Position numbers: made by a program. This document shows positions 3,001-6,000 of a stretch of DNA of 57,083 bases, piece after piece; the first letter of the stretch is position 1; every line of letters starts with the position of its first letter. Source of the stretch: Thermotogota bacterium (GTDB taxonomy: Bacteria; Thermotogota; Thermotogae; Petrotogales; Petrotogaceae); the NCBI GenBank assembly GCA_051748045.1, contig JBNJGY010000005.1, positions 1 to 57,083 on the forward strand. The letters are read 5' to 3'.

Positions 3001-6000
3001 TCTGTTTTTAAATGTTCAATTTTCCCATAAATATAATTCATTTTTATATTATATTTTTTTGCTATTCCATCTAAAATAGGTTCATGTGTACTACCTCCAT
3101 AAAAGGTTACTTTAATTAATTTTTGATTATCTTTATCACTTTTAGCTCTTGCTGCTTTCCAGTCAATATTTATTTCTTTATAAAACTCATCATATATTTC
3201 TTTTTCTTTTTCAATAAAAAGTTTATACACAGGGCCAAAAAAGCTAACTTTACCATCTTTTAAATAAACAACTTTATCACAAGATCTTTTTATTACATCC
3301 ATTTCATGGGTAACTATGATTGTTGATAGATTGTGCTTTTTATTCAATTTTAGTACTAATTTCAATATCTTGTCAGTTGTATTTGGGTCAAGAGCTGATG
3401 TAGGTTCGTCTAGTAAAAGAATATCTGGTGAATTCACTATTCCTCTTGCTATCGCTGTTCTTTGTTTTTCACCTCCAGAAAGAGCTGAAGGATAGTGGTT
3501 TAACCTATCAGACAGTCCAACTTCTTCAGCTATTTTTAAAACTTTTTCTTTTATATTTTTTTGCCTACCTATTTCTAAAGGAAGAGCTATGTTTTCATAA
3601 ACAGTCCTAGTATTTAATAAATTATAGTTTTGAAAAACAACGCTTATTTTTTTTCTCTCTATTCTCAAATCTCTTTCTTTTAAAGAAACCAGATTTTTCC
3701 CGTTTAACTGAATTTCTCCACTTGTAGGCTTTTCGAGCATTACCATAGATCTAAGTATTGATGTTTTACCAGCTCCTGAAAGTCCAATTATGCCCGTTAT
3801 TTCACCTTTATCTACTTTAAAATTAATATCTTTTAATATGTGTAGGTTTTTATTGTAAATCAAATTCAAATTTTTTATTTCTAGCATATTTATTCCTCCA
3901 TTTTAAAATACCGGAACCACAGCACCTTCATATTTATCATTTATATAAGCACTAACCTTTTCTGATTGTAGATAATCAATTAAAGAAATTATCAATTCAT
4001 TTTCTTTGTTTTCTTCTTTTACTGCAACTATATTTGCATATGGTGATTCGGAGCCTTCTATATACAAAGCATCCTCTAAAGGATTTAAATCTGCTTGAAT
4101 TGCATAATTAGTGTTTATAACCCCTCCGTTGACTGTGTCATCTTCTTTATATGTTCTAGGTAAATAAGCTGCATCTAATTCTACAAATTCTAAATTCAAA
4201 GGGTTTTTAACGATATTTTGTATTGTTGCTGATAACTTCTCCTCTTCTTCTAAAGTTATGAGTCCATTGTTTTCCAATAAAATTAACGCTCTTCCTTCAT
4301 TTGTTGTATCATTTGGTATAACAACAGTATCTCCTTTTCTGATTTCATCACTTTTAACATAAAAACCCATTGGTTCTACATGTATTTTTGCAACTGAAAT
4401 TAATCCTTCTAAACCTTGATTTTGGGAAAATGATTCTAAATAAGGTATATGCTGAAAGAAATTTGCATCAATAGACCCATCATCTAAAGCTAAATTTGGT
4501 TGTACATAATCATTAAACTCAACAATTTCTAATGTCGCACCTGTTTCTTTTTCAAAATCTTCTCTAATTAACTCCAATAATTCTGCATGTGGGACTGGTG
4601 TAGCTCCGACTTTTAAAACTTCTTCCCCAGCATTGAAATAATAAATAACCCCTATAACCACTAATACCACAACAACTAATAATCCTATAACTTTTTTCAC
4701 AAAAAACACCTCCATAATTTTTTATATAAAAAAAAGGACGGCTACTTTTAAAAAAGTAACCGTCCTTTGATTATCCTAGATTATTTTAAATAGCAAAATA
4801 ACCATGGCTAAAGAATCGGTTACGCCATGGCATCATCATATTAAATAAATTTATATTTATATTTTTTGTTTTATTATTATTTTTCATAAAGGTCTCTCCC
4901 TTTGAATTTTTTATTATTATAGCAAAATAAAAATATATTGTCAAATAAAAGCAAATATTTAATTATATTAAACATTAATCCTATAACATACAAGAAAACC
5001 CAACCATTATTTAATGGCTGGGTTTGTTTTTAAAATTGAATTTCTATTGTATCTCTTTGAGAGTGCCTTCTCATAAAGCTATCAGAACTATTATGGTATG
5101 CAATTATTGTTTTTATTTTTGCATCAGGTTTTAAAGTATTATATCTTGATTCTTCATTTAATGGAATTTTTATTTCTGCTAATGAATATTCTTCTGTTCT
5201 TTCTCCATAAAAGTTTTCTATATATTTTTCTTCAATTTTCCTGTGACTTATCATTGAATTACCATAATGTTCTTCTAAAACAACTTCGTCATTATTTAGC
5301 CCTATTATTATTATCTTAGCATCTTTCATTCTATTACTAGGTTCAAACCCTATTGATATCCAACCTGATACAGGTGCTTTTATAACCATATACAAATCAT
5401 TATCTTCTGAAAATTCCCAATATATATCCATTCCTAATTCTGTTTCCATGTAATTACTATAAATTAAATCTTCAACCATCTTACTTTCAAACTGCTTAAC
5501 ATGTCCATCTGCGAAAATAAATGTTGATAATATAACAACGAATAAAATAACAAACAATCTCTTCATTTTCATTTGTATTACCTCCTTAGGTTATCCAAAC
5601 AACCATGGGTTTGTTAAATGAATAATTAAAAACACAAAAATTAAAATAGCAATATACCTGTGAAAAACCAACCACTTTTTTAATAGTTTCATTTTACCTA
5701 AAATAAATACAACTAAATTTAAAAATATAGCTAAAAATAAAATTAATCCAGTATGCCAATAAAAAATTGTTCCCAATATGAGATAAGCATGAATAGTTGC
5801 GATTATAAGGATTATGACCCCATTAATTCTATGGTATCTAGATATTTTTTTAATTACTTGAGCAAACTTAATTTTAGATTCTTTTGTTTTGAAATTATGT
5901 TTTTTAAAGTAAAATTTGACAAAATAATAACTAAGGCTAATACTCACTAAAACTACATTAATCCAACCTAATACAGCATATAAATCCAATTTTATCTCCC

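Follow-up and report, generated by a model that had tools for sequence, protein, structure and literature searches.

Is the methionine importer operon metQ-metN-metI of a Thermotogota bacterium (the genome under study, G000) controlled by a ribosome that reads methionine codons in a leader peptide? Methionine control is ascribed to SAM riboswitches, T-boxes and protein regulators, and leader-peptide attenuation is textbook knowledge for Trp, His, Phe, Leu, Thr and Ile/Val. A preliminary description of the window (the whole stretch of 57,083 nucleotides that was analysed) had proposed such an attenuator at this locus, and our analysis leads to the same reading, to which we assign a probability of roughly 0.85: the metQNI leader would be a ribosome-mediated transcription attenuator that responds to how much charged elongator Met-tRNA is available.

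The three genes lie on the minus strand and encode an NlpA/MetQ substrate-binding lipoprotein (metQ, 3903..4715; PF03180, 270 bits; likely starting at the GTG at 4700, behind GGAGGTG at 4713-4707), an ABC ATPase with a C-terminal NIL domain (metN, 2895..3887; Pfam ABC_tran and NIL) and a permease (metI, 2260..2898; Pfam BPD_transp_1). The NCBIfam assignments of MetQ, MetN and MetI that had been reported hold as best matches but fall under the curated cut-offs; Pfam supports all three. Given that no MetE was found in G000, and neither MetH nor O-acetylhomoserine sulfhydrylase above family cut-offs, the MetQNI importer is probably the methionine source of G000. A SAM-I riboswitch (RF00162) was found neither in the leader region nor in the window or the G000 genome, in a search for which the Bacillus subtilis control was positive, and no T-box (RF00230) was found in the leader region or the genome. 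The region upstream of metK in G000 is short, with neither leader nor terminator. Metatranscriptome contigs from one study (two runs) cover parts of metQ and metN, giving no ends, strand or level.

The leader, also on the minus strand, opens with a sigma-70 promoter (4944-4916) that matches the consensus at 12 of 12 bases, with a -35 hexamer TTGACA (4939..4944), a 17-nt spacer, and a TG ahead of the -10 hexamer TATAAT (4916..4921), from which the transcript would start at about 4909. A terminator of the preceding gene, located by the hairpin scan at 4996..5025, indicates that the leader and metQNI form a transcription unit of their own. A Shine-Dalgarno sequence, GGGAGAG (4894..4900), stands 6 nt ahead of the ATG at 4887 that opens a leader ORF of 33 codons plus UAA, MKNNNKTKNININLFNMMMPWRNRFFSHGYFAI (4786..4887), in which codons 17-19 are AUG AUG AUG (4831..4839). 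The 5' arm of a hairpin, P1, identified by folding, begins on the last base of this Met run (GCCAUGGC, 4824..4831) and is followed by segment 2, the antiterminator strand (GUAACCGAUUCUUU, 4810..4823), and by the P1 3' arm (GCCAUGGU, 4801..4808). The ORF ends at the UAA at 4788-4786, 42 nt past the run. Segment 3 (4753..4768), the 5' arm of the terminator, can pair either with segment 2 or with segment 4 (4733..4748), the 3' arm; the terminator (4768..4733) has 16 pairs, 6 of them G-C, a loop of 4 and a U8 tract at 4735-4728. The ORF with its three consecutive Met codons and the terminator thus lie exactly where the preliminary description had placed them. A matching ORF with the MMM run, as had been claimed for the same genus, is present in the relative L002, in which the downstream MetQ is 82% identical to that of G000.

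Two terminator-like sites were found in a 900-nt region, against 0.3 expected from shuffles. A scan of the whole G000 genome yielded 2095 terminator-like hairpins and, upstream of them, 657 RBS-preceded ORFs of 10-60 aa, among which a single one, the metQNI leader, contains an internal MMM. Runs of CCC, TTT and PPP in the small ORFs of G000 were set aside as noise lying inside coding regions. A 151-nt metatranscriptome contig of depth 2 covers 4780-4930 and reaches past the predicted start at about 4909; it may represent DNA or read-through.

Folding of the 200-nt leader gives -47 kcal/mol (z = -5.56; none of 200 shuffles as stable). The mutually exclusive hairpins noticed earlier by eye are borne out by computed energies in G000: -12.7 kcal/mol for P1 (4831-4824 with 4808-4801), -20.9 for the antiterminator (segment 2, 4823-4810, with 4767-4756) and -22.1 for the terminator, the duplex of segment 2 with 4767-4756 alone comprising 13 pairs with a 2-nt bulge at -15.0 kcal/mol. 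Because P1 is less stable than the antiterminator, equilibrium folds alone do not reveal the switch. When the transcript is cut ahead of segment 4, the antiterminator forms without a ribosome in 25 of 29 distinct leaders, so that in these equilibrium folding predicts it both with and without a stalled ribosome; under the same script the Escherichia coli trpL control switches, with a pairing probability of segment 3 of 0.06 when free vs 0.62 when stalled. Mimicking a stalled ribosome by masking on full-length RNA was uninformative, the terminator winning every time. In the G000 fold segment 2 is unpaired within the P1 loop, which makes a pseudoknot between segments 2 and 3 conceivable.

The two competing helices co-vary across lineages. 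Among 11 lineage representatives, cognate pairs of segments 2 and 3 average -16.2 kcal/mol vs -10.3 for non-cognate pairs, and the cognate mean was reached by none of 100000 permutations. Alignment A2 (19 sequences) shows antiterminator pairing in 86.5% of its cells, vs 38-62% in slid registers, with 3 of 7 pairs changed on both sides; for the terminator-state helices the share is 88.9%, vs 39-56% when slid, with 8 of 21 pairs changed on both sides and a score that none of 500 shuffles reached. The cross-lineage test was used in place of a single-sequence shuffle test of the segment 2/segment 3 duplex (p <= 0.05 in 17 of 32 leaders, p up to 0.49), which is weak for G+C-rich lineages. This covariation supports an antiterminator pairing that excludes the terminator. 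A compensatory change from U-A to C-G in leaders that carry MCM had been attributed to one relative, G009; the change is present, in genus g3 of our numbering (L015-L017).

A Met-rich leader ORF followed by a terminator precedes metQ in 28 of the 39 Thermotogota genomes that encode this MetQ; a SAM-I riboswitch takes its place in nine, and two were unreadable. An earlier, smaller sample had given 6 of 12 metQ regions. The runs in these 28 RBS-preceded ORFs are MMM, MMMM, MCM, MVM and MNMIM, some variants making do with two Met codons (MCM, MVM, MIM). No such ORF was detected at any of 71 non-Thermotogota metQ loci, and among 80 metQ loci in metagenomes the leader occurs at eight, every one among the 10 nearest matches; the metagenome scan contributed one new variant only (L154, MMMC) and no further relatives of the g1 type. 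A pattern search of 41 relatives (ATGATGATG, a gap of 60-90 nt and a U run), which misses the G000 leader owing to its 92-nt spacing, returned the family f2 metQ leaders that were already known, plus nine other places that look like coding or unstructured sequence.

The nine riboswitches, found in sibling genomes at 91-98 bits, give substance to the earlier remark that other genera have different leaders at the same place, consistent with interchangeable methionine sensing. At metQ, leader and riboswitch make a textbook case of one methionine sensor standing in for another. The riboswitch loci form one clade on the MetQ tree (support 96/97), and a single change explains the pattern.

Met leaders are linked with methionine genes beyond metQ as well. 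A covariance model, R1, built from 19 leaders, gave 58 matches in 151 genomes, of which 23 lie at metQ loci and 22 are further Met-type leaders in other families. Eight matches precede an operon encoding MetH-activation-domain-like, MetH-like, aspartate kinase and HcyBio-like proteins, three precede HcyBio (PF01837), and four precede aspartate kinase, asd and HcyBio. Seven weaker Met-type matches include four with AA_kinase in the scanned downstream ORF (G046, G111, G112, G124), two whose downstream ORF has no Pfam family (G047, G142) and one for which no downstream ORF was found (G110). Another 11 matches, weak ones (E 6e-4 to 9e-3), are leaders with WWW or WW, and TrpB-like PALP enzymes account for four of the five downstream ORFs scanned. 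In G000 itself, trpS and trpB are each preceded by a WWW leader.

Which feature of the Met run is under selection, the codons or the RNA? In alignment A1 (28 sequences) neither the first nor the third AUG varies. The run is constant at the nucleotide level, and because methionine has a single codon, conservation of codons and conservation of RNA are indistinguishable within it. The same constancy would be expected of an undescribed riboswitch or protein-binding RNA that binds SAM, methionine or a regulator directly, with AUGAUGAUG as the recognition motif and the ORF incidental. Such an RNA would also suit an element that occupies the position of the SAM-I riboswitch of sibling genera and an antiterminator that forms at equilibrium with no ribosome present. 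Beyond the 9-nt run and the helices, however, no conserved structured domain for a ligand is seen, nor is there an Rfam match, and identity within g15/g14 falls to 63% between the start codon and the run, vs 93% from the run to the terminator. The ORF, its RBS and the frame with the Met run are kept in 32 of 32 leaders and in other operon contexts, with 33-48 nt between start codon and run (24 leaders in seven groups) and a chance of an open frame of 0.03-0.26 per lineage; as far as the alignments tell, the ORF is held open while its N-terminal part drifts. The length of the run varies in three-base steps (MMM, MMMM), and the occurrence of UGG UGG UGG in a like layout before trp genes fits codon reading rather than an aptamer specific for methionine. 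Direct binding of a ligand or protein is therefore an improbable explanation.

If the ORF is translated, its product might itself be the sensor. TnaC halts the ribosome that makes it when tryptophan is present, and arrest peptides are known from other leaders; a peptide of this kind could arrest its ribosome on free methionine or SAM instead of through a shortage of charged tRNA, and the ORF does contain a short conserved motif, M-M-M and then C, Y, W, P or R. Past the run, however, the peptide differs by lineage (PWRNRFF, WHLRSS, YGNALV, CRPLSV, YPDPLF) while the RNA pairing is kept, and induction by the amino acid would be opposite to what an importer or a biosynthetic operon calls for, which makes a nascent-peptide sensor highly improbable.

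It could further be supposed that the translated leader works through Rho or mRNA stability, or that the hairpin terminates in part, constitutively, and senses no amino acid. Rho has been proposed for actinobacterial Cys-codon leaders without terminators (PMC1262725), and the equilibrium model of the Met leader gives no switch. Against Rho stands the strong terminator with a U tract that follows every leader (32 of 32; -19.5 to -25.1 kcal/mol). Against a constitutive hairpin stands its 5' arm, of which the best partner begins 2-9 nt past the Met run in all 32 leaders and with which that strand co-varies, for no reason if termination were constitutive. Both versions appear hardly credible. A chance ORF beside an ordinary terminator, for which a single 33-codon open frame in AT-rich context has a likelihood of about 0.03, no trivial value at one locus, is very improbable and is refuted, as far as computation can do so, by the recurrence of the arrangement, in every case before methionine-related genes, in 49 of 151 Thermotogota genomes, its absence from all 71 outgroup loci and the uniqueness of the MMM leader in G000.

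We accordingly return to attenuation by a translating ribosome, for which the following course of events is proposed. Transcription would begin at the perfect promoter, and the leader ORF would be translated from its RBS. With Met-tRNA plentiful, the ribosome would pass AUG-AUG-AUG and segment 2 and reach the UAA, where it would sit between segments 2 and 3 and block the antiterminator; segments 3 and 4 would then pair, and RNA polymerase would terminate at 4735-4728. Because the stop codon lies 42 nt past the run in G000, a terminating ribosome would not cover segment 2, and we infer that the block comes from its position between the two segments. With Met-tRNA scarce, the ribosome would stall on the AUG run, any of its three codons occupying the A site. 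The leading edge of the ribosome would hide the 5' arm of P1 and leave most of segment 2 free, a geometry consistent with the start of segment 2 at 2-9 nt past the run; segment 2 would capture segment 3 once made, no terminator would form, and the polymerase would read into metQNI. The stall, its timing and the response to methionine are what this scheme predicts. Methionine starvation should also slow the leader's own initiation, which counts against the scheme. Since the RNA prefers the antiterminator when it is not translated, the folding model suggests that the design may stay 'on' at extreme scarcity, when methionine is insufficient even for initiation with fMet.

If this default-'on' design is real, it answers why a translation-based methionine sensor is possible despite the fMet start, and an AUG-reading attenuator would add a further route of methionine sensing. 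Inside one bacterial family, the sensor at metQ would have been exchanged between a SAM riboswitch and one of tRNA charging. A phylum-wide methionine regulon would follow and draw in uncharacterised genes: a MetH activation domain relative of 187-195 aa, 'hypothetical' proteins of the PRK04334 type and a 142-aa ORF. Annotation by regulon would also gain an entry into how Thermotogota handle methionine, with HcyBio, the archaeal-type route to homocysteine, and a number of unnamed genes within its reach.

With regard to known systems, the metQNI leader is most likely a real ribosome-mediated attenuator in which the amino acid is new and the mechanism known. Attenuators for other amino acids were reportedly described in Thermotogales by Vitreschak in 2004, and this work and that of Lopatovskaya in 2010 may matter for the novelty of a Met-codon attenuator. 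The reported lack of an Rfam match extends to the leader region, the window and 10 related loci: nothing reached the gathering score in the first two (at a permissive threshold Thr_leader scored 15.4 bits in the leader region, against a gathering score of 55, on the wrong strand), and the related loci returned only a tRNA. No Met-codon attenuator was found in Rfam or in the accessible portions of the literature searched (including PMC4833913, PMC2965389, PMC8632094, PMC10272879 and PMC1262725). Known relatives in kind are uORFC-8-2, a Cys-codon leader before cysS in Rhodobacterales (PMC8632094), and poly-Cys short ORFs in mycobacteria (10.1101/834739; PMC1262725), which resemble the Met leader in placing tandem codons for a sulfur amino acid before the genes for that amino acid but differ in residue, taxa and genes and, in mycobacteria, in lacking an intrinsic terminator. 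The Met-specific T-box leaders that precede methionine transporter genes of Firmicutes (PMC2965389) presumably respond to the same signal (charging of tRNA-Met), have a methionine ABC importer as target and a terminator/antiterminator output; unlike the Met leader, the T-box RNA binds tRNA directly, without a ribosome. The SAM-I riboswitch occupies the same site before metQ, likewise ends in a terminator and is functionally interchangeable with the Met leader, but it is a SAM-sensing aptamer of 108 positions with no ORF, and the Met leader gives no RF00162 match.

The WWW leaders in G000 and elsewhere in the phylum share with the Met leaders the layout of run, hairpin, stop and terminator and differ in having Trp codons and trp genes downstream, a likeness of layout and weak model matches that does not imply common descent. 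We hold the balance even on a Thermotogota attenuator family with one scaffold and codons swapped by pathway (AUG for methionine, UGG for trp), in which the AUG type would be the first known case of attenuation by Met-tRNA charging. The closest parallels are E. coli trpL and the his, phe, leu, thr and ilv leaders: in these, as in the Met leader, a promoter-proximal, RBS-preceded short ORF contains clustered codons for the amino acid of the operon, an intrinsic terminator precedes the first structural gene, and an antiterminator strand competes for the terminator 5' arm. The Met leader departs from the classical attenuators in its regulatory codon, AUG, and its phylum, and also in spacing, the stop codon lying 18-51 nt past the run and 12-30 nt ahead of the terminator across leaders, compared with 9 and 42 nt in trpL. 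Its post-codon hairpin is weaker than the antiterminator, so that the untranslated RNA favours read-through at equilibrium, unlike trpL under the same script.

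The leader region upstream of metQ-metN-metI (minus strand) starts at the terminator of the upstream gene (5025-4996), and includes a promoter that matches the consensus at 12 of 12 positions and carries a TG extension (TTGACA-17-TATAAT, 4944-4916), a GGGAGAG ribosome-binding site (4900-4894) and a leader ORF of 33 codons (ATG at 4887, UAA at 4788-4786; peptide MKNNNKTKNININLFNMMMPWRNRFFSHGYFAI) with three AUG codons at 4839-4831. The mutually exclusive hairpins and the terminator that the preliminary description placed here were all found: hairpin P1 pairs GCCAUGGC (4831-4824) with GCCAUGGU (4808-4801), and within its 15-nt loop lies the antiterminator strand, segment 2 (GUAACCGAUUCUUU, 4823-4810), complementary to AAGGACGGUUAC (4767-4756), which is a portion of the 5' arm (segment 3) of a 16-bp terminator followed by eight U (4768-4733). 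The 200-nt leader folds much better than its shuffled versions (z = -5.56; 0 of 200 shuffles as good). Downstream, Pfam assigns metQ (likely start GTG 4700, preceded by GGAGGTG) to the NlpA lipoprotein family (270 bits), metN to ABC_tran plus the NIL domain, and metI to BPD_transp_1; the earlier NCBIfam naming of the three stands as regards the top matches, but their scores are under the curated cut-offs. The ORFs bordering the unit on the same strand (856-2121, 421 aa; 5030-5572, 180 aa) have signal-peptide-like N-termini and no NCBIfam family match.

A chance origin of the Met run finds little room in this genome (2.41 Mb, 99.65% complete), where 2095 terminator-like hairpins were scanned: among the 657 small ORFs upstream of them (10-60 aa, with a ribosome-binding site), the metQNI leader alone has an internal MMM run. 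The same scan yielded two WWW leaders, before trpS in the window (TIGR00233, 296 bits) and before trpB on contig C30 (TIGR00263, 539 bits), both genes exceeding the cut-off; the lineage thus employs classical Trp leaders, which makes a similar Met leader plausible. The trpS element (53865-54063, plus strand; gene 54110-55165) is a second predicted leader-peptide attenuator, lacking an Rfam match, with TTGACA (53865-53870), a 17-nt spacer and TATAAT (53888-53893), the ORF MKNQLKYINKRLWWWHL (53924-53977; three UGG at 53960-53968), stacked hairpins and a terminator at approximately 54037-54063. The trpB leader, MLKNSLKLNRNWWWHLK, occupies approximately positions 83-136 of the examined locus L148 (C30:20400-21900), with trpB from about 277 and the stop codon within the antiterminator strand. 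WWW leaders of similar layout precede TrpB-like genes in at least 10 further genomes of the phylum.

A function of the peptide itself, or of an aptamer, would be at odds with several signs of translation in the sequences. Within genera g15 and g14 the frame is open throughout, and identity is 63% from the start codon to the Met run and 93% from the run to the terminator; the start-to-run distance is 36-39 nt in these genera and varies between 33 and 48 nt across all seven measured groups. The residues after the run vary between lineages, run length varies by whole codons, and ATG-NNN-ATG is the sole invariant block of a 28-sequence alignment. In many leaders from outside the order to which the window belongs, AUG-AUA-AUG (Met-Ile-Met) replaces three AUG (loci L245, L251-L253, L256-L259, L112 and L283); AUA, an Ile codon, is one base away from AUG.

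MetQ (E <= 1e-30) is present in 39 of the 151 genomes of the phylum, and the metQ upstream regions were inspected in all of these but G088 (partial matches). The preliminary description had the leader kept in 6 of 12 regions; here 28 of the 39 have a terminator preceded by an ORF that has a ribosome-binding site and carries a Met-rich run, nine others have a SAM-I riboswitch on the metQ strand, and two are unread (G009, at a contig end, and G088; genera g8 and g13). The leader genomes fall into genera g15 (9), g9 (4), g3 (3), g16 (3), g1 (2), g13 (2), g22 (2), g14 (1), g18 (1) and g21 (1), counts that overstate independence given that the genomes are related, and the runs are MMM, MMMM, MCM, MVM or MNMIM; in four g15 genomes a second, paralogous metQ lies behind an MVM leader. 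The "different leaders" previously seen in other genera turn out to be the riboswitch (g6, 6 genomes; g7, 2; g10, 1), with scores of 91-98 bits where the gathering score is 44.4. In g7 and g10 (loci L007, L011, L012), three to four tandem repeats of ~95 nt, each with a G+C-rich palindrome-like core, separate the riboswitch terminator from metQ, and L007 carries a HEARO RNA (RF02033, 140 bits) at 3301-3525. In the MetQ tree, the riboswitch loci form a single clade (support 96/97), a pattern explained by one change, and Met-leader loci occur to either side of the midpoint root. Outside Thermotogota, small ORFs with MMM, MCM or MVM, sought within 450 nt, were found at 0 of 71 metQ loci; in the same control set, the leader ORF was found at 8 of 9 Thermotogota loci, the ninth being the riboswitch genome G014 with too short a flank. 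Among metagenome metQ loci, 8 of 80 have the leader, all within the ten closest.

The covariance model built from an alignment of 19 leaders gave 58 matches in 46 of the 151 genomes (E <= 0.01, E-values being rough), and all but that in G119 were inspected. With Met runs, 23 lie at metQ loci, 3 before HcyBio, the homocysteine-biosynthesis family PF01837 (509 and 471 bits in the two scanned; G042 by N-terminal likeness only), 4 before aspartate kinase, aspartate-semialdehyde dehydrogenase and HcyBio, and 8, with MIM (AUG AUA AUG), before a methionine-synthase-type operon of family f8. This operon encodes a 187-195-aa protein similar to PDB 1j6r "methionine synthase" (E 2.5e-20), a MetH-like protein (TIGR02082, 459 bits, partial), aspartate kinase and an HcyBio-like protein. 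Seven matches are weaker (MM, MMAMMM, MMIM, MIM), with AA_kinase genes behind them in G046, G111, G112 and G124; no downstream ORF was found in G110, and the ORFs in G047 (115 aa) and G142 (172 aa) have no Pfam family. Eleven matches carry WWW or WW, with PALP (TrpB-like) in 4 of 5 scanned downstream ORFs and a ferredoxin-domain protein in the fifth, and one (G011:C22) is without a leader ORF. Counting nine family-f1 genomes missed by the model, at least one Met-type leader is present in 49 of 151 genomes. With filters off, the model's match in the window, at 4729-4848, has 24.5 bits (E 1e-4 for 801 nt), and the window's element is hence a divergent member. The strongest argument that these codons act by being translated is the pairing of AUG with methionine and UGG with tryptophan genes on a similar scaffold. 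In G100, G043 and G061 (L264, L265, L266), the operons that follow Met leaders contain genes whose names are vague or lacking. The 187-195-aa MetH-activation-domain relative has no Pfam or NCBIfam match; other such genes are a PRK04334-type "hypothetical protein", a 142-aa ORF, and SufC-like and SufBD-like genes. Belonging to this regulon suggests that they act in the synthesis of homocysteine or methionine.

The best partner of the terminator 5' arm, searched after the run, starts 2-9 nt past it in all 32 leaders; single-sequence shuffle support for the pairing of segments 2 and 3 is modest (p <= 0.05 in 17 of 32). For 11 lineage representatives, cognate pairs average -16.2 kcal/mol versus -10.3 for non-cognate ones and come out on top in 6 of 11 columns and in 7 of 11 rows, with 0 of 100000 permutations matching the cognate mean. 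In the 19-leader alignment the antiterminator pairing holds in 86.5% of cells (38-62% when slid), with both-side changes in 3 of 7 pairs. The hairpin and terminator helices reach 88.9% (39-56% slid; 0 of 500 shuffles attain the score; both-side changes in 8 of 21 pairs), a result somewhat favoured by helix definitions derived from one member. The compensatory change described earlier was recovered: from g1 to g3, U-A in the antiterminator becomes C-G and the terminator stays A-U or G-U.

A genome search detected neither a SAM-I riboswitch nor a T-box in this genome, metK is leader-less, and the metQNI leader is the sole methionine-specific RNA control found. MetE was not found, and MetH and O-acetylhomoserine sulfhydrylase were not above family cut-offs; the organism, probably a methionine auxotroph, is likely to rely on MetQNI for its supply.

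Beyond the observed anatomy, conservation and covariation, we infer the stalling, its timing and the methionine response. A ribosome stalled with a Met codon in its A site would have its front edge between ~4827 (first AUG) and 4821 (third AUG), masking the P1 5' arm and leaving 11-14 nt of segment 2 free; in masked folds mimicking the stall, the antiterminator forms. At equilibrium without a ribosome, the antiterminator already wins over P1 (-20.9 versus -12.7 kcal/mol), as it does in 25 of 29 distinct leaders, which suggests that termination in the phylum would depend on a ribosome that has passed the run, such that a stable anti-antiterminator hairpin would not be needed. The passing ribosome might cover segment 2 (stop 18-33 nt past the run, most of family f2) or sit immediately upstream of segment 3 (stop 42-51 nt past the run in g1, g9, g3, g21 and g22, 12-18 nt ahead of the terminator arm). 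An untranslated leader is predicted to read through, a behaviour that would be apt for sensing methionine, since initiation too is impaired by severe shortage.

No Rfam family matches the window leader, as previously claimed, nor the window or 10 related loci, and full-text literature searches turned up no Met-codon attenuator. Related published cases are Cys-codon leaders, described in PMC8632094 and PMC1262725, and His leaders in Firmicutes and T-box or leader exchanges, in PMC2965389. Under the same script, the E. coli trpL control switches at equilibrium, whereas most Met leaders favour the antiterminator unaided, and the trpB leader of this genome folds like the Met leaders, unlike trpL.
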